DNA from: an uncultured Nitrospiraceae bacterium
Lineage (GTDB): Bacteria > Nitrospirota > Thermodesulfovibrionia > Thermodesulfovibrionales > Dissulfurispiraceae
Reading direction: 5' to 3'
Length of the DNA stretch: 64,000 nucleotides
NCBI GenBank assembly: GCA_963727805.1
Contig: CAVSHF010000003.1
Span: forward strand, 1,696,001 to 1,760,000
Shown here: positions 52,735-63,345 of the stretch, piece after piece
Layout of the letters: every line of letters starts with the position of its first letter
Numbering within the stretch: position 1 is the stretch's first letter
Position numbers and translations under genes: made by a program
Notes under the pieces: model-generated
Database searches by the model: none
Seen by the model: the letters and a program-made list of their open reading frames with translations, nothing else
What the model was told of the DNA's origin: nothing

Positions 52735-53955
52735 TTACGAGAAGATCACCATTAATATACGATCGATATCCTTTAGCGTATCAATCATCCCCGCTGCTTC
52801 AGCAGGCATGAGTTCATCGGCTTTAAGCTCCGAGATAATTCTAGATAGCCCGTCGACGGCGCCTTTGACATCCAGGTCATTATCCATATTATCGACAAAC
52901 GTCTTTTTCAGCATGGCGACTATCTTCCCTTCGACCGGCGCTGAGCGCCTCGCATGTTTCCTGATCGTTTCGACTAGTTCTTTGAACTCCCTCAGCTTCC
53001 TGGCAGCTGCTTCCACGCCCTCGGCTGAAAAGTTCATTTCACTCCGGTAACGACCGTAAATAAGTAAAAACCGTATCTCTTCAACCGAATACCCCTGCGA
53101 CAAAAGGGTATCAACATAAACAATATTCCCTTTACTCTTCGACATTTTCTGCCCATTCACGAGTAAGTGATGCCCATGGAGCCAATATCGCGCCATCGGG
53201 AAAGGCCTTATCGATTCCAGAATCGCGAGGGTGTAATCGTGGTGCCGGTAAAGATTGTCGATGCCGCCGCAATAGATCGAGAGTGTCTCACTGAAATAAT
53301 CGACGATCATGCTTGGGTCCTGGATATTCCACGAGGGCCTGCCTTTGCCGATCTTCGTGTCCCAATAGACCTCGTCCCCGTCTTTGTATCCATGCCACAG
53401 GATGAAATCCCCGAGGTTCCATTGGATGCCTGGGTAGGTATCTTTGTGGTATCTCCTCTTGCTCTTCGGCCATTTGGACATGTCGAGTCCGAAGAGTTTC
53501 CCGAACCCCTCGAACTTCAGAGGGTCGAAATAAACATTTCCGTGATACCAGTAGGCGATATCGCGTTCGAGCAGGTCCCGAATTATACCTACGGCCTGAT
53601 CGACATGGTCCGAAGCCCTCGGCATAAGGTCTGGCACCTTTACTTTCAGGAGCTTCATTTCACCGACAAACTTTTTGATATTTCTGTCTGTGAGCTTCCG
53701 AACGCTGACGGATTCCTTCTTCGCCTCGCTCATCACCTTGTCCTCAACATCGGTGATGTTCATGCCACGCTTGACGCTATAGCCTAGATATCCGAGATAG
53801 CGGACGAGTATATCTTCGAAAAGAAAAGTCCTCATATTGCCGATATGGGCGCGCTGGTATACCGATGGGCCACAGGTAAAAATACTGACCAAGTCAGGGT
53901 CGACCGGTTTGAAGGTCTCAATCTTTTTCCCAAAGGTATTGAAGAGCTTAAGCAT
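52735..53955 (-). CDS. Cysteinyl-tRNA-synthetase paralogue with altered Zn site and no anticodon-binding domain
   Basis: CGPSVY, HIGN, NITDVEDK, DFILW, GRPSWNIQD, RHHDYT, KMSKS; 406 aa, ends after the DALR-like helices. Confidence 0.85.
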   Translation of the reverse strand: MLKLFNTFGKKIETFKPVDPDLVSIFTCGPSVYQRAHIGNMRTFLFEDILVRYLGYLGYSVKRGMNITDVEDKVMSEAKKESVSVRKLTDRNIKKFVGEMKLLKVKVPDLMPRASDHVDQAVGIIRDLLERDIAYWYHGNVYFDPLKFEGFGKLFGLDMSKWPKSKRRYHKDTYPGIQWNLGDFILWHGYKDGDEVYWDTKIGKGRPSWNIQDPSMIVDYFSETLSIYCGGIDNLYRHHDYTLAILESIRPFPMARYWLHGHHLLVNGQKMSKSKGNIVYVDTLLSQGYSVEEIRFLLIYGRYRSEMNFSAEGVEAAARKLREFKELVETIRKHARRSAPVEGKIVAMLKKTFVDNMDNDLDVKGAVDGLSRIISELKADELMPAEAAGMIDTLKDIDRILMVIFS

Positions 53956-54029
53956 TGAGGTCTCCTGTCCTAATAAAAAAGCTATCTTTCTAATTTACCT
54001 CATTACACTAAAAAACAGAAGTCGGCGGC

Positions 54030-55391
54030 TCACCCCACCCTTACTTCTTTCCACTTGCCACCATGAAATCTCTTCGCCATGAGTACCCCCTGGATGACCA
54101 TCGAAACCACCATCGCTATCCAGACACCAGTTGCCCCATAGCCGAGCATAAGCGCGAAGATATACGCCAGAGGAAGCCTGATTAGCCACATGGCGGTTCC
54201 CACGACCCACATTGTTCCCCGCGTGTCCCCTGCTCCCTGCAACCCACCTCCGAGCACGACGCTCAGGGCCATGAAGGGCTCCGAAAGCATGTTAAATCTC
54301 AGGTATCTGACAGTTTCGGCTAGAACCGCAGGATTGTCCGTGAAGGCGGCGGCAATCCGCTCCGCCAAGATGAATATGACAAGTGCCATGGAACTCATTA
54401 GAACGACCCCAGTCATGCCGATCTTCCATCCAACCTTTTCAGCCCTCTGAGGATTACCGGCGCCCAAGTTCTGGCCGATCAGCACCGATGCAGCCATATT
54501 GAGTGCAAAGGCTGGAAGAAAGATAACCCCTTCGATCCTGAATCCATTGGTGATGGCCGCGAGGGCTGTAATGGATGCATCCCCCAGCCTGCTGAGGACA
54601 TTGTAGAGAACAATGCTCCCGGCATTCCATGCAATTTGGAGCAGGGCAGCCGGCCAGCTTATAATCAGCATTTTTTTGATAAGCTCGGCGGAAAGCGTCC
54701 ACGGGCGCTTATAGATTCCTGCCCAACTTCCGAACCTGAAAAACAGAAGATTCATCACCATCCCGACCATTACGGAGAGTGCAGATGCGACCGCTATCCC
54801 GATATAGCCGAGCTTCGGAAAAGGGAAGACGCCGAAGACAAGGAGAAAGTTTAACACTATGTTGATGGCACTGACAGCAGTCATCGTAAGAAGAGGCTTC
54901 TTCACTTCGCCGCATGCCCTGAATATAGAATTAGAAATGATGAGAAGGTAATTGGCCCCGAGGGCCAGAGCATAGACCTGAAGAAAGTGCCCCGCCATAC
55001 TCCTGATCTCACGAGGAAAGCCAGTAAGATCGACGATCTCTTCATACAGAACAAGACCGGAAACCATCACAGCCACAGCAACGATGACGCCGAACATCAT
55101 TGCTTGACGGGCAATCTCGACCGCCTTCCCGGAATCTCCGGCCCCGACAGCTCTTGAGACAAGGGAGAGGCTGCCGATGCTGACTGCGTTGGCGATGATG
55201 ATCGTAAGAAATAATATCTGGCTGACAAATCCGACAGCCGCCTGGACCTCGGGGCCGATAAGGCCTGCAACATAGACGTCCACAACCCCGACAAGAAAAT
55301 TCAGAAGCATGATGATGAGCATCGGCCACGACATGTACCAGATATTGGCCCAAATGTTCCCTATGGTAAGATCGACTGGTTCATCCTGCAT
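54030..55391 (-). CDS. MATE-family efflux transporter
   Basis: About 12 TM helices; LIGQNLGAG, LQGAGDT, GVWIAM. Confidence 0.93.
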   Translation of the reverse strand: MQDEPVDLTIGNIWANIWYMSWPMLIIMLLNFLVGVVDVYVAGLIGPEVQAAVGFVSQILFLTIIIANAVSIGSLSLVSRAVGAGDSGKAVEIARQAMMFGVIVAVAVMVSGLVLYEEIVDLTGFPREIRSMAGHFLQVYALALGANYLLIISNSIFRACGEVKKPLLTMTAVSAINIVLNFLLVFGVFPFPKLGYIGIAVASALSVMVGMVMNLLFFRFGSWAGIYKRPWTLSAELIKKMLIISWPAALLQIAWNAGSIVLYNVLSRLGDASITALAAITNGFRIEGVIFLPAFALNMAASVLIGQNLGAGNPQRAEKVGWKIGMTGVVLMSSMALVIFILAERIAAAFTDNPAVLAETVRYLRFNMLSEPFMALSVVLGGGLQGAGDTRGTMWVVGTAMWLIRLPLAYIFALMLGYGATGVWIAMVVSMVIQGVLMAKRFHGGKWKEVRVG

Positions 55392-55727
55392 AGCTGCCGC
55401 ACACTCCCGGAATCCGTCTCTATCAGATTATTCTACACGAAATCGCAGACTGGCTACTTGTGACATAATTTTTATTTGTCAAGGATTTCGGGAGGGTGTT
55501 TCATGTCCACCGGGAGGACGATTTTAAGGGAGCGCCCTTTTCTTCTCGCGAATCCGATGATTGAAAGCAATAGGTCAAAAGTCAGGCGTGTTAATCGGGT
55601 TGACAAAGGCCGCGGTTACTTTTTATCATAAACTTCACGGCAATCGGTTACCGTCATGAGCGTCTATGCCGATCAACAAGGTATAGACGCTATTTTTAGT
55701 CATTACGAAAGGACAATAAGGACCCTT

Positions 55728-56153
55728 ATGGACCAAAAAAGCGCCGGACTCAATATTACGATTTTTTTTTGCCAGCAATTAGACCCGAACCAGGAGGTCA
55801 ACAGGCGCGCCCTTGAAAGGGAGCTTGGTAAGCAGATCCGGTTTTTCCCCCTGCCGTGCAGCGGACGCATCGATTCTCTTCACCTCATGCGTGCCCTCGA
55901 ATCGGGGGCTGATAAGGTATATGTTGTCACCTGTCCCGAAGGGGCATGCCATTATCGTGAAGGGAATTTACGTGCCAAAAAGCGCCTTGCCTATACCCAG
56001 GGATTGATCGAAGAAGTAGGCCTTGAGCGTGAACGTTTAGAGTTGATTGTCGCTCCTGCGGGAACCTCTTTGACCGTCGATGAGTTGGCGAGGGGGATCC
56101 TTGCCCGAAATGCCTCAATCGGCCCCTCTCCTGTGCGTGGGAAACAGGCTTGA
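55728..56153 (+). CDS. mvhD: MvhD/FlpD-type [2Fe-2S] subunit
   Basis: FFC, PCSGR, GADKV, CPEGACHYREGN, GLERERL; ATG at 55728 preferred over 55656. Confidence 0.85.
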   Translation: MDQKSAGLNITIFFCQQLDPNQEVNRRALERELGKQIRFFPLPCSGRIDSLHLMRALESGADKVYVVTCPEGACHYREGNLRAKKRLAYTQGLIEEVGLERERLELIVAPAGTSLTVDELARGILARNASIGPSPVRGKQA

Positions 56154-56187
56154 AGATAAAAACGGCTGATGATAAAGGAGTAAGAGC

Positions 56188-56856
56188 ATGATAACTGCTG
56201 AAAGAAAACCTCTATCAGAGATCAAAGAGATGATAGCACCTTACAAAAAGATATTGGTCGTAGGCTGCGGGTCCTGTGTGGCTGAGTGTGCATCGGGTGG
56301 AGAAAAAGAGGTCGGGCTCCTCTCCTCCGCACTCCGTATGGATGCAAAGGCATCAGGGAAGGAGATAGAAGTAAAAGAGATGACCCTGGACCGCCAGTGT
56401 GTCTATGAGTTCATCGACCTTTTGACAGACGTGATAGGCCAGTACGACATTATCCTCTCTCTCGCCTGCGGTGCAGGCGTACAGGCCGTTGCAGAGGTAT
56501 TCCCCAAGGTCCATATTGTCCCTGCCCTTAATACAACATTTCTCGGAGAGACAAAAGAGGCAGGCCTCTGGATAGAGAACTGCCGGGGCTGCGGTGACTG
56601 CAAGCTCGGGGTTTTCGCTGCTGTTTGCCCTGTTACACGTTGCGCTAAAGGACTTTTTAATGGTCCCTGCGGCGGCTCCAGGACAGACCGCTGCGAGGTG
56701 GATCCCGATGTACCCTGCGCATGGCAGCTGATTGTCTCGAGACTCGAAGACAGGGGGCGTCTTGACCTCCTGCGAAAGGTGCATCCCCCTGCGGATTGGT
56801 CAAAACAGCAGGGGAAAGGACCGAGGAGAATTTACAGGGAGGACCAGAGAGCGTGA
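56188..56856 (+). CDS. metV: MetV (MTHFR-associated Fe-S/Zn subunit)
   Basis: MITAERKP, GCGSC, CRGCGDC, CPVTRCAKGLFNGPCGG, CAW. Confidence 0.92.
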   Translation: MITAERKPLSEIKEMIAPYKKILVVGCGSCVAECASGGEKEVGLLSSALRMDAKASGKEIEVKEMTLDRQCVYEFIDLLTDVIGQYDIILSLACGAGVQAVAEVFPKVHIVPALNTTFLGETKEAGLWIENCRGCGDCKLGVFAAVCPVTRCAKGLFNGPCGGSRTDRCEVDPDVPCAWQLIVSRLEDRGRLDLLRKVHPPADWSKQQGKGPRRIYREDQRA

Positions 56857-57776
56857 TGACTGAAAGCCGGCTAAAAAAGGTTTTACATAGTGGAAAATTT
56901 GCCGTTACCGCTGAATGCGGCCCTCCCAAAGGGGCAGACCCCGAAGTCGTGAAGAGCAAAGGAAGGATTCTTAAGGGTTATGTCGACAGCGTAAACGTTA
57001 CAGATAATCAGACTGGGGTGGTCCGTCTTTGCAGTCTTGCTGCATGTGCTATGCTCAATGCGGAAGGGCTTGACTCCGTGCTACAGATGGTCACCCGTGA
57101 CCGCAACCGCATCGCACTCCAGTCGGACGTCCTGGGAGCCTCTGCCCTGGGCATACGCAATATTCTCTGTCTCTCCGGCGATCACCAGACCTTTGGCAAC
57201 CAGCCTCAGGCAAAAGGCGTCTTTGACATCGACTCTATTCAGTTGCTACAGACCGTGCGTAATATGAGAGATGCCGGCGAAGTCATCGGCGGGGAAAAAC
57301 TGAGTATGCCGCCTTATATGTTTATCGGGGCCGCAGCAAATCCCTTTGCCGATCCTTTCAAATACCGAGCTGCCCGTCTCGCTACAAAAGTGGATGCTGG
57401 TGCGGAGTTCATACAGACCCAGTGCATTTACAACCTCAACCGCTTCAAGGAATGGATGGACCTCGTAAAAGACTATGGGATGGATAATAAAGTTTTCATA
57501 CTCGGTGGGATTACTCCGCTTAAATCTGCCCGCATGGCAGAGTACATGGCAAAGAATGTTGCCGGCATGGATGTGCCCGAGGAGATCATCAACAGAATGA
57601 AATCGGTCCCCGCAAAAGAACAGCGGCAGGAAGGAATCAAGATAGCCGTAGAAACCATCCAGGCGCTTCAGGCAATGGAAGGTGTCCGCGGGGTCCATAT
57701 CATGGCAATCGAGTGGGAAGAGGTAGTTCCCCAAATAGTTCAAGAGGCTAAACTTTTCCCCAGGCCTCAGGTTTGA
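56853..57776 (+). CDS. metF: Methylene-THF reductase MetF
   Basis: VTAECGPPKG, NVTDNQ, RDRNRIALQSD, LSGDH, FIQTQ, GVHIMAI. Confidence 0.93.
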   Translation: MMTESRLKKVLHSGKFAVTAECGPPKGADPEVVKSKGRILKGYVDSVNVTDNQTGVVRLCSLAACAMLNAEGLDSVLQMVTRDRNRIALQSDVLGASALGIRNILCLSGDHQTFGNQPQAKGVFDIDSIQLLQTVRNMRDAGEVIGGEKLSMPPYMFIGAAANPFADPFKYRAARLATKVDAGAEFIQTQCIYNLNRFKEWMDLVKDYGMDNKVFILGGITPLKSARMAEYMAKNVAGMDVPEEIINRMKSVPAKEQRQEGIKIAVETIQALQAMEGVRGVHIMAIEWEEVVPQIVQEAKLFPRPQV

Positions 57777-57789
57777 GAGGAGTTAGCAT

Positions 57790-59172
57790 ATGCCCCCCAA
57801 ATATCATATTCATGCCGGCCAAGTAGCGAACCGGTTTCAGGCGATAACCCGGTCTGGTGTCATTGCCTGGGAAGAAGGCTGCCTCAAATGCGCCCGCTGC
57901 GTAAAAAAGGATTGCGTCTACAAGGTATATGAAAAGCGGGGCATTGATTCCCGCCAGATGCTCGAATCCCTCGACAGTGTCTGCATGGACTGCTTCCGCT
58001 GCGTCCAGGGCTGTCCGAACAAACTTATCCAGAAGGGTCTCAATCCCTCATATAAGGCCCTCGGGGATCATTACTGGACTCCGGAGATTATTTCGGGACT
58101 CTGGTACCAGGCAGAAGCAGGCCGTATCCCGGTGTCGGGCGGCGGCTACGGGGGACCTTTCTCCGGACCCGGGTATGATGCCATGTGGACGGATATGTCC
58201 GAAATAGTACGTCCTACGAGAGATGGTATCCATGGCCGCGAATACATAAGCACTACCGCTGATATAGGCCGCAAGGTGATGGCACTCGAATTCGATCAGT
58301 CAGGGGCACTGACGATTACTCCTCCGCCCATTGTGGAGATTCCGCTGCCGCTTTTGTTCGACATCCTACCGTGGTCTCCGCCGCGGAAAGGGATCAATCT
58401 GGCCCTGCTCGAAGGAGCGCGCTCATTGGGGACCTTTGCCATAATCAGGCAAAGTGAGTATGGTTCGGCGATGGAGCAGTATCTGCAGAACATGGTTCTC
58501 TTCGTTGACGGACGTTTATCCGATATTGATTCCGCTGTTCTGAGCAAGTTGCGATTGATAGAGATTCCTTATGGGAAAGAGGTTATCGCCACACAGAACT
58601 CCTTAAAAGAGAAGTTCCCCGGCATCGTGACAATTATCCGGATGGACCTCAGTCCTGATTCATCTGAAAATATCATTCGACTCACCGCAGAAGGCGCCGA
58701 GGTTATACATCTTGTTGCCGATGAATATGGCCTTGAAAGAGCCGACAGGCCTCTCTTTATTAAAGAACGGATGAGGGAGATACACCTTCACCTCGTAGCG
58801 AAGGGAGTGCGTGACCAAATCACCCTCATTTCAGGTGGGGGCATCGCTATGGCGGAGCATGTGGCAAAGCAGATCATCTGCGGTTCAGACCTGGTGTCCG
58901 TCGACATACCACTTCTCATTGCTATGGAGTGCAGGGTATGCCGCCGCTGCAAGGAGGGCATTGCGTGTCCTGTGGAGCTTGACAGTGTCGACACCGTTTG
59001 GGGCGCCGGCCGGGTAAGGAATCTGATGGTAGGCTGGCATAACCAGCTTATCGAGATACTCGGTGCCATGGGTATACGCGAGGTGAGAAGACTACGGGGA
59101 GAAATGGGTCGTGCCATGTTCTTCGAGGATCTCGAAAAAGATATCTTTGCCACACTGGGTAGAAGGGGTTGA
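57790..59172 (+). CDS. Glutamate-synthase-related FMN-barrel paralogue with N-terminal ferredoxin (catalytic motifs degenerate)
   Basis: CLKCARC, CMDCFRCVQGCP, SEIVRPTRDG, SGGGI, CRVCRRC; lacks MSFGS, GEGG and QGAKPG. Confidence 0.8.
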   Translation: MPPKYHIHAGQVANRFQAITRSGVIAWEEGCLKCARCVKKDCVYKVYEKRGIDSRQMLESLDSVCMDCFRCVQGCPNKLIQKGLNPSYKALGDHYWTPEIISGLWYQAEAGRIPVSGGGYGGPFSGPGYDAMWTDMSEIVRPTRDGIHGREYISTTADIGRKVMALEFDQSGALTITPPPIVEIPLPLLFDILPWSPPRKGINLALLEGARSLGTFAIIRQSEYGSAMEQYLQNMVLFVDGRLSDIDSAVLSKLRLIEIPYGKEVIATQNSLKEKFPGIVTIIRMDLSPDSSENIIRLTAEGAEVIHLVADEYGLERADRPLFIKERMREIHLHLVAKGVRDQITLISGGGIAMAEHVAKQIICGSDLVSVDIPLLIAMECRVCRRCKEGIACPVELDSVDTVWGAGRVRNLMVGWHNQLIEILGAMGIREVRRLRGEMGRAMFFEDLEKDIFATLGRRG

Positions 59173-59176
59173 TACA

Positions 59177-60697
59177 ATGGGAACAGACACACATAAACTC
59201 ATGCTGCCTGATGTGAAAAAAGTGCCGAGCCGTTTCCGTAATGCCCTCGGTAAATATCGCGTAGCGGTATCTAAGGCATGCAATAACTGCGGACTCTGCA
59301 TAACGCTTTGCCCTTATGGAGTATACAAGGCAGGATCAAAAAAACCGCGAGTCGCAGCCGATCATCTTTGCCTCGGGTTTCCCTGCAGCTCGAACGAATT
59401 CTACTGCGTGAGCAGATGCCCGGAAAAGGCAATTCATCTAAGTCTGAATCCATCCTTTGAGATCCTGGGTGACAAACGATGGTCGGCTGATCTTCTTGCC
59501 AGCACATGGCATATGGCAGAGACCGGAGAACTTCCTTATCAAGGACTCAACTATAAGACAGGTGATTCAGGCGGCGGGTTTGATAAGCTCCGTTTTATAT
59601 TCCCCAGGGGAAAAGAGCTGGATGTCCCTGATGAAGCAATATCCACAGCCATTGAACTTAATCGTACCGGAGATTCAAGGCCGGGGATCGAGATACCTGT
59701 TCCGTTCTATCTTGGAGGTATGTCATTCGGCTCTGTCAGTATTGTGACCATGCTCTCCCGCGTCAAAGCTGCGGCTGCGCTCAATACCTTCTGCTGTACC
59801 GGAGAAGGTGGATACCCTGAAGAACTGATCCCTTACGATGATCACATCATCACGCAAGTTGCAACGGGTCTCTTCGGGGTAAGAGAAGAGACGCTCAAGA
59901 GGGTCCGGATAGTCGAATTCAAGTATGCTCAGGGGGCAAAACCTGGTCTCGGCGGACATCTTCTCGGTGACAAAGTGACGCCGCGTGTTGCCGCTATGCG
60001 CGAGGCAGTAGCAGGAAGCGCCCTCTTTTCACCGTTTCCATTCCATAGCGTCTACTCGGTGGAAGACCACAAGAAGCATGTAGACTGGATAAAGGAGACA
60101 AACCCCCGTACCCTCGTGTCGGTAAAGGTCTCCACACCGACTGACGTGGACATGGTTGCCGTGGGAAGTTATTATGCCGGTGCCCATATCATTCAGCTTG
60201 ACGGAAGTTACGGCGGAACAGGCGCCGCACCTGATATCGCAAAAAAGAATATTGCTATGCCCATCGAATATGCCGTACCCAAGGTGCATAAATTCCTGTC
60301 TGAAGAGGGGATCAGGGACAAGATAACAATTATCGCGAGCGGCGGGATACGCACCGCGCATGATATGGCTAAAGCCATTGCCCTGGGCGCAAATGGCGTA
60401 TGTCTCGGTACAGCCGATCTCGTGGCCCTCGAATGCATCCGCTGTCACCATTGTGAATCAGGTCGCGGCTGTGCCAGGGGTATTGCCACAACAGACGATC
60501 AACTTACGAACCTCATGGAACTCGAATGGGCGACTCAGCGCATTGTCAACATGTATCTGACCTGGCGGCGCCAGCTTGTCTCCATCCTCAAACGTCTGGG
60601 GATGAAGAGCGTTACAGAGCTTGTGGGACGATTTGATGTGATTGGTCACCTCGATTACATTAAGCAGGAAGAGATACAAGGGGAGTTGGAACTATGA
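59177..60697 (+). CDS. Glutamate synthase FMN-binding subunit with N-terminal ferredoxin
   Basis: CNNCGLC, GGMSFGS, TGEGG, KYAQGAKPGLGGHL, DGSYGGTGA, CIRCHHC. Confidence 0.9.
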   Translation: MGTDTHKLMLPDVKKVPSRFRNALGKYRVAVSKACNNCGLCITLCPYGVYKAGSKKPRVAADHLCLGFPCSSNEFYCVSRCPEKAIHLSLNPSFEILGDKRWSADLLASTWHMAETGELPYQGLNYKTGDSGGGFDKLRFIFPRGKELDVPDEAISTAIELNRTGDSRPGIEIPVPFYLGGMSFGSVSIVTMLSRVKAAAALNTFCCTGEGGYPEELIPYDDHIITQVATGLFGVREETLKRVRIVEFKYAQGAKPGLGGHLLGDKVTPRVAAMREAVAGSALFSPFPFHSVYSVEDHKKHVDWIKETNPRTLVSVKVSTPTDVDMVAVGSYYAGAHIIQLDGSYGGTGAAPDIAKKNIAMPIEYAVPKVHKFLSEEGIRDKITIIASGGIRTAHDMAKAIALGANGVCLGTADLVALECIRCHHCESGRGCARGIATTDDQLTNLMELEWATQRIVNMYLTWRRQLVSILKRLGMKSVTELVGRFDVIGHLDYIKQEEIQGELEL

Positions 60698-63345
60698 AAC
60701 ATTTAAACAATAGAGACGCAATAATTAGATCGCGATACTATTTCCGCGAGGCCGACCGGCTGGTAAATCGAAGTACGATTGAAGCTGAAGAAGGCGGTTG
60801 TGGCGTTACCGGTTTTGCCTGCAATATTCGCGTGAGCGGTCGTCACATATTCACTCCTTCTGTTCAGATGCATAACAGGGGAAACGGCAAAGGGGGAGGT
60901 CTTGCAGCTGTCGGCCTGAGTCCCGACAAGCTCGGAGTGGACCAGGAAACTCTCGACAGTCATTTCCTCCTGCAAGTTGCAATCCTTGACAAGACAGTCG
61001 TACAAGAGATGGAGGCGCGTTTTATCCACCCTCACTTCCGGGTTGCCCATGAAGCGGCCGTCGATGCACTAGATGACTACAGGGACATTGCAGGCCTTGA
61101 GGTTAAGCCTCCGGCGGTGAAACGCTATTTTGTGCGGGTAAAACCGGAAGTCCTTGCCCTTTTCCAGAAAGAGCGCGGACTGGAAATGCTGTCTTATGAC
61201 AGGGCAGAGGAAGAGTTCATCTTCCAGAATACGTACCAGTTGAACCTTGCCCTGTACAGTTCCCTCGGTGAGAAAAAGGCCTTTGTTCTTTCCCACGGCA
61301 GGAACATGATGATACTGAAGATAGTGGGTTATGCCGAGCAGGTGGCCCAATACTATAAACTAGAAAACTTTGATGCCAATATATGGATAGCCCATCAGCG
61401 GTATCCCACCAAGGGCCGGGTCTGGCATCCCGGCGGGGCTCATCCCTTCATAGGCCTTAATGAAGCCCTTGTGCACAATGGAGACTTTGCGAATTATTAT
61501 TCCGTATCCGACTATCTTCGCCAACGCAATATCTATCCGCTTTTCCTTACCGATACAGAGGTTTCTGTTCATGTGTTCGACCTCCTGAGCAGAGTATACG
61601 GGTATCCTCTTGAGTACATAATTGAAGCCCTTGCCCCTACGGGAGAGATGGATTTCGATCATCTACCGAAAGAAAAACAACTCATCTATAGACAGATCCA
61701 GGCTACCCACATCCATGGCTCTCCTGACGGACCCTGGTTCTTCATCATCGCCCGCAACAATGTTCAGAAAAAAAAGTTCCAGCTTATCGGCATTACCGAT
61801 ACAGCCATGCTGCGGCCACAGGTCTTTGCCTTGCAGAAAGGGGCAGTGGAGATAGGACTGATCTGTTCGGAAAAACAGGCGATAGATGCGACCCTGGAAA
61901 GCCTCGCAAAAGAAGACCCGCGTTTCGGTACGATAGCAGACCATTACTGGAATGCCCGTGGCGGTAGTTACACTGATGGCGGGGCTTTTATCTTCACAAT
62001 ACAGGAGTCTGCACCAGGAAAGATGAGTCTCACCTGTACGGATAAATTCGGACGGCTTGTGGATGTTCCAACAGACCAGACACCTCTTGATAGCAGAGCC
62101 CACTCGCAGGCGGCACCGACCACTCCTGTGGCTCTCTCAAAAGACATCCTTAAAGACATGTCCGAGGGCAACGCAGAAAAGATATTTACCGGCTTGAAAG
62201 CGCGTTTTGTTGAATGGGACTATACACAGCTCTCCACATTCCTCAACCAGATCGTCGCCCTTGCAGAGAAGGATGATCTGAGGAAGACGGCAATCGCTCT
62301 GCTCGCGCTCCTTCTTGACCGACACTACTTTACAGGAAACATGAGACGGCGTTCAGTGCTCCAGATGGTCTCCGACGCACTCGATTCTATCTTCAGGGCT
62401 ATTCCTATGATCAGTGAGACTAAAAGCGCTCTATCCTGCTGTAAAATTGATTTTTACAACCGTCATATACTTCGTGCCCCAGCGAAAGGGGAAAAGGTCT
62501 TGGTTGCTGACGCGGGACTATTCCCTCCCGAAGGTGATGACTCATTCGCCCGTCTTATCTCAGACGCGTACAGTCTCGGCTGGAAGCGGTTCATCTGTTT
62601 CGGCCAGCGTGGTCAGCGCTTTCTTGGGTGCGGGGTTGGTCCCGACACAAAGGGAGTGCGTATAGACTCCTTCGGCTCTTCGGGAGACTATCTCGGTTCC
62701 GGCATGGACGGACTTGAAATCTTCGTGCACGGAAATGCCCAGGACCAACTCGGGCAGATTATGAAATCGGGGAAACTCGTCGTGCATGGTGATGTAGGGC
62801 AGACGTTCATGTACGGGGCGAAAGGCGGCGAGGTCTATGTGCTCGGAAATGCTGCAGGCCGTCCCCTCATCAATGCGTGTGGCAAACCGAGGGTTGTCAT
62901 AAACGGCACAGCACTCGACTACCTGGCGGAATCTTTTATGGCGGGCGATCCTTACAAGGGCGGCGGTTTCGTTATTCTGAACGGCCTGACCTTTGATAAA
63001 GATGGAAAGATGGTCCCTCTGGAGATACCCTATCCCGGATCGAATATCTTCTCACTCGCATCAGGTGGAGCAATTTTTGTGCGCGACCCGCATCAGTCCA
63101 TCGTACAGGAGCAGTTGAATGGAGGTCAGATCCTGCCCTTTAGGAAAAAAGACTGGAAGCTGATACTCCCCTATCTGAAGGAGAATGAACGACTATTCGG
63201 CATCGGGATAGATGAACTCCTTACTGTGGACGGCAAACTTTGCAAACCTGAAGAGGTCTATCGCACTATTGGAGCGGTAAAGCTCGCCGTCCTTTCGGGG
63301 ACCGCCGCCATCGCCATGAATGAAGAGTGGGAAGAGGAAGATTAG
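60694..63345 (+). CDS. Glutamate synthase amidotransferase (Ntn) plus GXGXG beta-helix subunit
   Basis: EEGGCGV, HNRG, AHQRYPT, AHPF, HNGD, TDTE, DGP, LRP; C-terminal GXGXG repeats. Confidence 0.9.
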   Translation: MKHLNNRDAIIRSRYYFREADRLVNRSTIEAEEGGCGVTGFACNIRVSGRHIFTPSVQMHNRGNGKGGGLAAVGLSPDKLGVDQETLDSHFLLQVAILDKTVVQEMEARFIHPHFRVAHEAAVDALDDYRDIAGLEVKPPAVKRYFVRVKPEVLALFQKERGLEMLSYDRAEEEFIFQNTYQLNLALYSSLGEKKAFVLSHGRNMMILKIVGYAEQVAQYYKLENFDANIWIAHQRYPTKGRVWHPGGAHPFIGLNEALVHNGDFANYYSVSDYLRQRNIYPLFLTDTEVSVHVFDLLSRVYGYPLEYIIEALAPTGEMDFDHLPKEKQLIYRQIQATHIHGSPDGPWFFIIARNNVQKKKFQLIGITDTAMLRPQVFALQKGAVEIGLICSEKQAIDATLESLAKEDPRFGTIADHYWNARGGSYTDGGAFIFTIQESAPGKMSLTCTDKFGRLVDVPTDQTPLDSRAHSQAAPTTPVALSKDILKDMSEGNAEKIFTGLKARFVEWDYTQLSTFLNQIVALAEKDDLRKTAIALLALLLDRHYFTGNMRRRSVLQMVSDALDSIFRAIPMISETKSALSCCKIDFYNRHILRAPAKGEKVLVADAGLFPPEGDDSFARLISDAYSLGWKRFICFGQRGQRFLGCGVGPDTKGVRIDSFGSSGDYLGSGMDGLEIFVHGNAQDQLGQIMKSGKLVVHGDVGQTFMYGAKGGEVYVLGNAAGRPLINACGKPRVVINGTALDYLAESFMAGDPYKGGGFVILNGLTFDKDGKMVPLEIPYPGSNIFSLASGGAIFVRDPHQSIVQEQLNGGQILPFRKKDWKLILPYLKENERLFGIGIDELLTVDGKLCKPEEVYRTIGAVKLAVLSGTAAIAMNEEWEEED

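Follow-up and report, generated by a model that had tools for sequence, protein, structure and literature searches.

A tail-less cysteinyl-tRNA synthetase paralogue beside a MATE transporter: a conserved prokaryotic family with a likely non-tRNA acceptor

Results

The locus and its proteins

The window, that is, the whole stretch of DNA analysed here, comprises 64,000 nucleotides from an uncultured Nitrospiraceae bacterium. On its minus strand lies a gene for a tail-less paralogue of the cysteinyl-tRNA synthetase (CysRS) family (52735..53955, -), which encodes a protein of 406 aa, P0001, and was characterised by its ORF translation, by PF01406, which matches residues 15–317, and by a structural model. 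The protein scores 320.6 bits against TIGR00435 (cysS), below the cut-off of 340, with positions 1–401 of the 466 in the profile matched. Against TIGR03447 (MshC), it scores 177.8 bits, with a second score of 180.6 and a cut-off of 485.1.

The class I catalytic fold, with its two signature motifs, is present according to sequence, Pfam, model and Foldseek. HIGN, the HIGH-type ATP motif (residues 37–40; 53836..53847, -) and KMSKS (residues 270–274; 53134..53148, -) are both found in the translation, as the first-pass annotation of this DNA had stated. The AlphaFold model, built on a 70-row alignment, has a pLDDT of 93.9 and retains the helical bundle. When this model was used in Foldseek, CysRS 8QHP came out on top with a TM-score of 0.90; CysRS structures spanned 0.85–0.90 and MshC 0.82–0.84. 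The ESM Atlas returned matches to CysRS/MshC-type clusters alone.

The zinc ligands of E. coli CysRS are C28, C209, H234 and E238 (PMC7563103). Alignment of the paralogue to the E. coli structure 1LI5 leaves C28, W205, H234, H235 and KMSKS unchanged and reveals the substitutions H206N, E208Q, C209D, H224Y, P233R, E236D, N237Y and E238T. Thus, two of the four zinc ligands, C28 and H234, are kept, and the replacement of C209 by Asp and of E238 by Thr, noted earlier, is borne out. The codon for C28, a kept predicted metal ligand (53872..53874, -), lies in FTCGPS, where S31 takes the place of the canonical T. WNIQD replaces canonical WHIEC (53317..53331, -; residues 205–216 read GRPSWNIQDPSM), and RHHDYT replaces canonical PHHENE (53230..53247, -; residues 226–242 read SIYCGGIDNLYRHHDYT). 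Between HIGN and WNIQD there is a basic and aromatic loop, WPKSKRRYHKDTYPGIQWN (residues 162–180; 53416..53472, -), which stands where canonical CysRS has the GARV-type acceptor-stem loop. At the C-terminus, residue 397 aligns with residue 387 of the 461 in the E. coli enzyme and the protein ends at approximately residue 396, so that about 65 residues are missing. The anticodon-reading domain is therefore absent, in accord with the earlier description of a protein that stops at 406 aa without it.

The paralogue follows a co-oriented MATE transporter gene (54030..55391, -) after a spacer of 74 bp, from the MATE stop to the paralogue start (53956..54029, -), which agrees with the arrangement first described. 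This transporter of 453 aa is the sole MATE found in the genome. It scores 231.9 against TIGR00797 (cut-off 147.4) and also passes PF01554 (Pfam MatE), and among the named subfamilies YeeO, DinF, NorM and MepA none exceeded its own cut-off, YeeO being the best. YeeO is listed as an exporter of peptides and flavins (PMC8607383) and DinF has been tied to oxidative-stress protection (PMC11091901); these likenesses serve as analogies only. From the sequence, we infer that the two genes may be co-transcribed. A scan for promoters and terminators stayed at chance level (7 found, with 5.1 and 4.1 expected), and the regions upstream of 56 MATE genes share no operator or RNA past promoter-like -10 elements. 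In four wetland RNA libraries, there are contigs that match parts of both genes at 88–99% identity, and no contig bridges the MATE into the paralogue; as these contigs also cover intergenic DNA, they are no proof of transcription or co-transcription. On the other side of the paralogue lies a convergent PlsC-like acyltransferase gene, with nifU and nifS farther out. Divergent from the MATE there is an operon-like run (55656-63345, +) encoding an MvhD-like subunit, the small and large subunits of MTHFR and three glutamate-synthase-domain proteins.

Conservation across the family

The best 120 relatives are 62–97% identical to the paralogue and 119 of them are 395–412 aa long, nearly all falling at 405–412 aa; distant members have 41–50% identity. 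The protein is mildly basic, with a pI of 8.8–9.4. Named hosts of the family belong to Nitrospirota, Desulfobacterota, Chloroflexota and Bathyarchaeia. For comparison of residues, 471 sequences were reduced to 211 non-redundant ones: 65 family members, 134 canonical CysRS, seven full-length proteins that carry Asp in place of C209 and five in none of these groups. Family membership was defined by R237 and Y241, so these two are at 100% by construction.

In all 65 members, C28, G29, S31, H37, G39, T68, K73, W209, D233, H238, H239, H260, M271, S272 and K273 are present. N210, Q212 and D213, which occupy the positions of H206, E208 and C209, are equally invariant, as is N40, although Asn is also the commonest residue there in the sister canonical set (103/134). 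The earlier worry that the substitutions might not be conserved, and so reflect decay, is thereby answered. The position of E238 holds T, N, S, I or V. That of H224 is Tyr in the window's protein, as originally reported; across the family it varies (Tyr in 38 of 65 members, Ala in 13, Asn in 5, His in 3 and Trp in 2), so that Tyr is not a fixed trait. In place of the GARV-type loop, the family has W162 P163 ... R168 F169 H170 x D172 T173 Y174 x G176 ... W179 N180. K188 and Q245, which are conserved positions, are lost or rebuilt, together with H206, E208, H224, the acceptor-stem loop and the C-terminal domain. Hence, the features that would face tRNA are lost or rebuilt in the family. H206 and H224/H235 of CysRS have a role in transfer to tRNA, and the loss of H206 and H224 would fit an acceptor other than the tRNA hydroxyl. 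Since the substitutions are conserved across relatives of near-constant length, they and the loss of the tail are read from the alignments as family traits and not as decay.

Two points of the first-pass annotation need revision. The Cys next to H224 (C229), which it regarded as new, was inherited from the parent CysRS lineage and is thus ancestral: DIHCGG is the reading in 13 of the 15 full-length enzymes listed as nearest, and a Cys of this type occurs in 23 of the 134 canonical enzymes. In addition, its proposal of a non-cysteine substrate was overstated, because C209D is also found, by sequence, in the seven full-length CysRS-like proteins that retain H206, E208, H224, H234 and E238. Their natural C209D indicates that Asp can stand at this site, and makes a Cys/Asp/His metal site with cysteine as substrate plausible. 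E236D, for its part, is present in a solved eukaryotic CysRS.

Seven loci (L056, L061, L063, L065, L066, L068 and L070) carry frameshifted or split copies, several of which come from long-contig assemblies and may be sequencing errors. P0207 is a degenerate offshoot of the family, 430 aa long, in which C28, one His and the consensus of both HIGN and KMSKS are lost. In a plasmid collection, 630 records match the paralogue, all at below 60% identity, and the 60 matches listed, at 26–35%, include no family member. Approximately 500 Klebsiella plasmid records carry cysS-like sequence of about 30% identity, many matching only from residue 23, and do not belong to this family.

A canonical cysS in the same genomes

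The host genome, which is 100% complete, has a separate, motif-complete cysS on contig C5 that is 31% identical to the paralogue. It is a single ORF of 711 aa (L002 835-2970) in which a serine acetyltransferase (CysE)-like domain is fused to the N-terminus, and it settles the question of whether a canonical enzyme exists elsewhere. The presence of this gene indicates that the paralogue is not the working tRNA-Cys charging enzyme of the host. Many relatives have frames of 705–760 aa around cysS, which suggests that the CysE-CysS fusion is common in the host's class; a different architecture is seen in P0133 (768 aa), where a cysteine synthase-like domain is joined to a full-length CysRS. The host has one tRNA-Cys(GCA) and one tRNA-Sec.

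The same holds for other genomes. With the family profile, the paralogue was found in 21 of 301 Nitrospirota-phylum genomes, all from the host's own order, and a second CysRS-like match was present in all 21. Of those second matches, the ten listed for relatives come from long reading frames and have E-values of 1e-82 to 1e-89, like canonical cysS. Among Bathyarchaeia-class genomes, 13 of 201 have the paralogue and all 13 a second match, as do five of five other hosts examined. Across the 39 genomes countable for both (one counted twice), the paralogue never takes the place of cysS.

The MATE partner

A MATE of one subfamily, 53–88% identical to that of the window, directly precedes the paralogue at 41 of 67 loci, in three bacterial phyla; seven of the 67 have less than 1.5 kb of upstream sequence. 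In the host's own order, this is the case for 16 of 21 loci. Of the order's 90 genomes, 80 were used to count co-occurrence, namely all 21 with the paralogue and 59 of the 69 without: both genes were found in 18, the paralogue alone in three, the MATE alone in one and neither in 58. Eighteen of the 19 MATE-bearing genomes thus have the paralogue as well, and in G163 and G275 the two are present and unlinked. Among 23 genomes with a MATE-less locus, the subfamily occurs elsewhere in five; in the other 18 it was not found at 50% identity, although these MAGs may be incomplete. None of the five archaeal hosts searched gave a match. The distances of the two proteins correlate over 45 pairs (r 0.80, reached in 0 of 2000 permutations) and their trees share 15 of 42 splits, a congruence that linkage by itself would yield. 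Long ORFs in L034, L053 and L048 that resemble fusions of the two proteins were dismissed as off-frame overlaps of the GC-rich MATE gene.

The MATE is nearly always accompanied by the enzyme and the enzyme is often without the MATE, as expected for an accessory exporter. The link is real, yet not obligatory. Accordingly, the make-and-export module proposed at first stands in so far as the pairing is conserved across phyla and co-inherited, and fails as an account of the whole function, since the MATE is absent from all five archaeal hosts and from most genomes with MATE-less loci.

Oxidative-stress genes and other neighbours

Of 52 MATE-less loci, 19 have a gene for a peroxiredoxin/BCP, SOD, rubrerythrin or OsmC no farther than 1.5 kb away, versus none of 48 MATE-bearing loci, none of 49 canonical cysS loci, which sit in fixed operons, and 0.9% of random places in the host genome. 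The loci counted are those flanked on each side by more than 1 kb (100 of 138 in the family and 49 of 68 canonical ones), and as the reference proteins were chosen from the family's own neighbours after viewing and kin loci are not independent, the weight is that of about five independent associations and not of 19. Stress-gene neighbours are found in at least five separate branches, a recurrence that the first-pass annotation does not mention. In one archaeal branch, a BCP peroxiredoxin is directly upstream (14 loci), and BCP-type peroxiredoxins also lie near the gene in two bacterial branches. Two bacterial branches without the MATE have either rubrerythrin and peroxiredoxin or superoxide dismutase next to the paralogue, and single MATE-less cases have BCP, OsmC, or Rrf2 plus cytochrome bd. 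NifU/NifS, SufBD, rhodanese and thioredoxin are neighbours at some loci, and in other Bathyarchaeia DinB is directly downstream (6 loci). An SOD gene is present in 21 of 21 paralogue-bearing genomes and 41 of 59 others, which is uninformative owing to the kinship of the genomes. In one Desulfobacterota branch (L024, L037, L044 and L064), a protein of 355–358 aa with no Pfam match is encoded between asnA and the paralogue.

ARAGORN, which can miss 8/4 tRNAs, was run on 60 loci and detected no tRNA beside the paralogue; at some of these loci there is a tRNA-Arg, -Ala or -Leu at a distance that ranges from a few hundred bases up to several kb. Rfam gave no tRNA, ncRNA or riboswitch near the gene, and the annotated neighbours include no elongation factor or SelB. 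Five genomes were searched for thiol-pathway genes with models for PIG-L, BshA and GCS2. PIG-L proteins, of the MshB/BshB type, were not found in the complete host genome (G000), G199 or G211 and were present in G251 and G142, while BshA above its cut-off and GCS2 were each found in none of the five. No acceptor-making gene is linked to the paralogue among the loci examined.

Origin of the family

A maximum-likelihood tree of 81 rows, computed by quick search and rooted at the midpoint, recovers the family as a single clade (SH-aLRT 100) and places archaeal proteins that are tail-less and bear WHIEC between it and full-length CysRS. Three of these stem proteins are named as Micrarchaeota or Iainarchaeum. 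L170 (5673-6890) and L171 (1113-2330) each encode a tail-less CysRS of 405 aa in which WHIEC is kept and E238 is lost, and they fall on the same stem in another tree, which has the host cysS as its root and is read for topology only. L170 and L171 are possible evolutionary intermediates. Since WHIEC is kept in the tail-less stem relatives, the lineage appears to have begun as a cysteine enzyme. The sequences tentatively suggest an order in which tail loss was followed by the loss of E238 and then by remodelling of the pocket and loop, tentatively because the branches are long. L171 is downstream of an ABC-2 exporter gene and L170 of one for a PLP amino-acid decarboxylase.

The tail-less, motif-intact proteins of Micrarchaeota/Iainarchaeota type (P0137, P0145, P0146, P0170 and those of L170 and L171) resemble the family in length (405–413 aa), in CGPSVY, TDVEDKA and a basic loop, and in their place on its stem. 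They differ in that they mostly keep WHIEC and H224 and lack the WP..KRRF..DTY loop. No description of them was found in the literature. Bathyarchaeia-class genomes (L249-L253) contain a second, unrelated tail-less CysRS paralogue of 403–415 aa with WHIED, in which the D72/K73 positions are changed and an ELC loop is conserved; a DUF6754 gene is near four of the five loci.

Discussion

Comparison with known systems

The paralogue shares its fold and its HIGH-type and KMSKS motifs with canonical CysRS (TIGR00435, PF01406; 8QHP, 1LI5/1U0B), in addition to the equivalents of C28, T68, W205, D229, H234 and H235 and the helical bundle. Its DIHCGG..DN was inherited from the HIGN-type archaeal/bacterial branch of CysRS. 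In contrast to canonical CysRS, it has no anticodon domain, E238 or H224 and carries C209D, H206N, E208Q, P233R and N237Y. A WP..KRRFHKDTY.G..WN loop stands in place of the GARV-type loop, which, as described in PMC5389517, recognises the acceptor stem at its first pair. Wherever copies were counted, it is the second one.

MshC, the L-cysteine:GlcN-Ins ligase, is described as the precedent for a tRNA-independent cysteine ligase derived from CysRS (PMC2922099, PMC9437257). The paralogue is likewise tail-less, of similar length (MshC 413–414 aa) and of the same fold (3C8Z, 8HFM); the tRNA-independent chemistry and antioxidant role of MshC are only proposed for it. Its identity to MshC is 24–26% in structural alignment, and it is nearer to CysRS. 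The zinc site of MshC has two cysteines, whereas the second Cys ligand is Asp in 65 of 65 paralogues. Unlike MshC, moreover, the paralogue is paired with a MATE in a genome without an MshB/BshB-type deacetylase. With a TIGR03447 score far below the cut-off, no PIG-L in the host genome and two of four relatives, and neither BshA above its cut-off nor GCS2 in the five genomes searched, the paralogue is taken not to be MshC or a bacillithiol enzyme.

CysRS* of Desulfobacterales, by its description in PMC5389517, has no anticodon domain and an altered acceptor loop and is thought to charge the selC* tRNA; an engineered mimic was functional in vivo. The paralogue resembles it as a second cysS copy with both of these traits in related anaerobes. 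It differs in that CysRS* is described downstream of selC*/selB*, and with neither these nor an adjacent tRNA at the loci examined, the paralogue is not CysRS*.

CysRS and CARS2 have been reported to synthesise persulfides in a PLP-dependent reaction that needs neither ATP nor tRNA, and E. coli CysRS with C28D or C28/209D is said to keep this activity and to lose that in translation (PMC5660078, which names C28D, C28S and the double mutant). The single C209D is listed likewise as persulfide-retaining in a review (PMC10655014), and its translation activity is described as greatly reduced (PMC10655014; PMC7563103). The natural C209D of the paralogue is thus the laboratory mutation that parts the two activities; K76 is not conserved in the family, and the ATP site is conserved although the activity requires no ATP. 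The accounts found report no dedicated natural persulfide synthase of CysRS type. Synthetase paralogues that work without tRNA are already known as a kind; the present family is apparently undescribed, no description having been found in the literature, where supplementary lists (e.g. that of PMC5389517, or synthetase surveys) may mention it.

Weighing the explanations

The most probable single explanation, though a tentative one, is a tRNA-independent, MshC-like cysteine ligase whose product would be a thiol that defends against oxygen stress and leaves through the MATE. Here, cysteine would bind with the help of a metal at C28/D213/H238 together with W209, and would be adenylated with ATP at the intact HIGN/KMSKS site. 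It would then be transferred to the amine of a small and common, probably anionic metabolite, which R237, Y241 and the basic-aromatic loop would bind, forming an amide. The product may be a slowly autoxidising thiol that protects anaerobes from oxygen stress and that, in most bacterial hosts, would leave the cell through the upstream MATE. The loss or rebuilding of H206, H224, the acceptor loop and the C-terminal domain makes a non-tRNA acceptor likely, as the first-pass annotation had suggested. For the MshC-like ligase speak the residues predicted to contact ATP and the alpha-amino acid, invariant in 65 of 65 members, as well as the MATE pairing, the stress-gene neighbours and the separate canonical cysS. 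Against it stand the lack of a linked acceptor-making gene, the missing MATE in archaeal hosts and the absence of stress genes within 1.5 kb of all 48 MATE-bearing loci. In addition, the harm done by C209D in E. coli CysRS implies that cysteine activation by the paralogue may be poor or gone.

That last point is also the strength of the main reading of the earlier note, which is rather unlikely: an ATP-dependent ligase for another substrate, such as a non-cysteine amino acid, cysteine sulfinate or homocysteine, whose conjugate is made or detoxified and exported by the MATE. Six invariant canonical pocket positions shift together and are fixed anew (N210, Q212, D213, R237 and Y241, with E238 lost), C209D cripples the translation function in E. 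coli, and R237 with the basic loop could hold an anionic side chain. However, the cysteine-specific set C28, W209 and H238 is invariant, C209D exists naturally in full-length enzymes, the supposedly new Cys is ancestral and WHIEC is kept on the stem. If the substrate is cysteine, tRNA charging might still be its use, by an oxidation-tolerant backup CysRS with Asp for one zinc thiolate, or by an enzyme of CysRS* type acting on a non-canonical tRNA. This is improbable. The CysRS* precedent, also without an anticodon domain as described (PMC5389517), the mildly basic protein and its place among oxidative-stress genes are in its favour, but no selC*/selB* or other tRNA gene adjoins the paralogue, the host has a single tRNA-Cys and a single tRNA-Sec, the anticodon and acceptor readers and H206/H224 are all lost, cysS is never replaced in 39 genomes, and the exporter is left unaccounted for.

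The stress-gene neighbours would also suit adenylation that yields no small-molecule amide, namely protein cysteinylation, a sulfiredoxin-like activation of over-oxidised peroxiredoxin, or the making of dinucleoside polyphosphate alarmones, an idea to which we assign little probability. The BCP-type peroxiredoxin upstream or nearby, DinB downstream and the lack of a linked acceptor-making gene agree with it; yet the neighbour differs by branch, which a shared regulon would explain better than a protein substrate that is always the same. Apart from C229, which is ancestral, no further conserved cysteine of a catalytic kind was identified, and the co-occurrence with the MATE has no place in this idea. 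A dedicated cysteine persulfide synthase, in which the PLP-dependent side activity has been split from translation and the MATE exports antioxidant persulfides, is very unlikely. It could draw on the persulfide production that C28D, C28/209D and C209D mutants are reported to keep (PMC5660078, PMC10655014), on the invariant equivalents of K73 and K269 and a K266 present in 61 of 65 members, and on neighbours such as peroxiredoxins, SOD, rubrerythrin and, at some loci, NifU/NifS, SufBD, rhodanese and thioredoxin. The reaction needs no ATP, though H37, G39 and D233 are invariant; the equivalent of K76 varies (10 of 65 members have K), the kept lysines are common to all CysRS, and the new conserved acceptor loop has no part to play. 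The persulfide synthase activity of CysRS is itself disputed. Lastly, a decaying cysS duplicate, for which the TIGR00435 score below cut-off, the few frameshifted loci and the degenerate P0207 might be cited, has virtually no probability: it is refuted by replacement residues that are fixed across bacteria and archaea at 41–97% identity, by constant length, by the SH-aLRT of 100, and by the 31% identity to the host cysS, which excludes a recent duplicate.

Significance

The MshC-like ligase may be extended to a broader proposal, which is doubtful as a whole. Anaerobes without known thiol pathways would make an undescribed cysteine-containing thiol (or persulfide) with one synthetase-derived enzyme, and in bacteria a dedicated MATE would release it as a shield against oxygen. 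The family would then record a stepwise conversion from translation to redox chemistry, with the tail lost, then E238, and then the pocket and acceptor loop remodelled. The thiols that shield sulfate-reducer-type bacteria and Bathyarchaeia from oxygen are poorly known, and a two-gene unit with a soluble enzyme of 46 kDa makes the question of oxygen protection tractable. The paralogue is also a natural version of the C209D mutant used in the argument for persulfide synthesis by CysRS. The database name cysteinyl-tRNA synthetase is probably wrong for a family that spans several phyla and both prokaryotic domains. If the proposal is true, a ligase that works without tRNA would have arisen from CysRS a second time, independently of MshC, with intermediates surviving.
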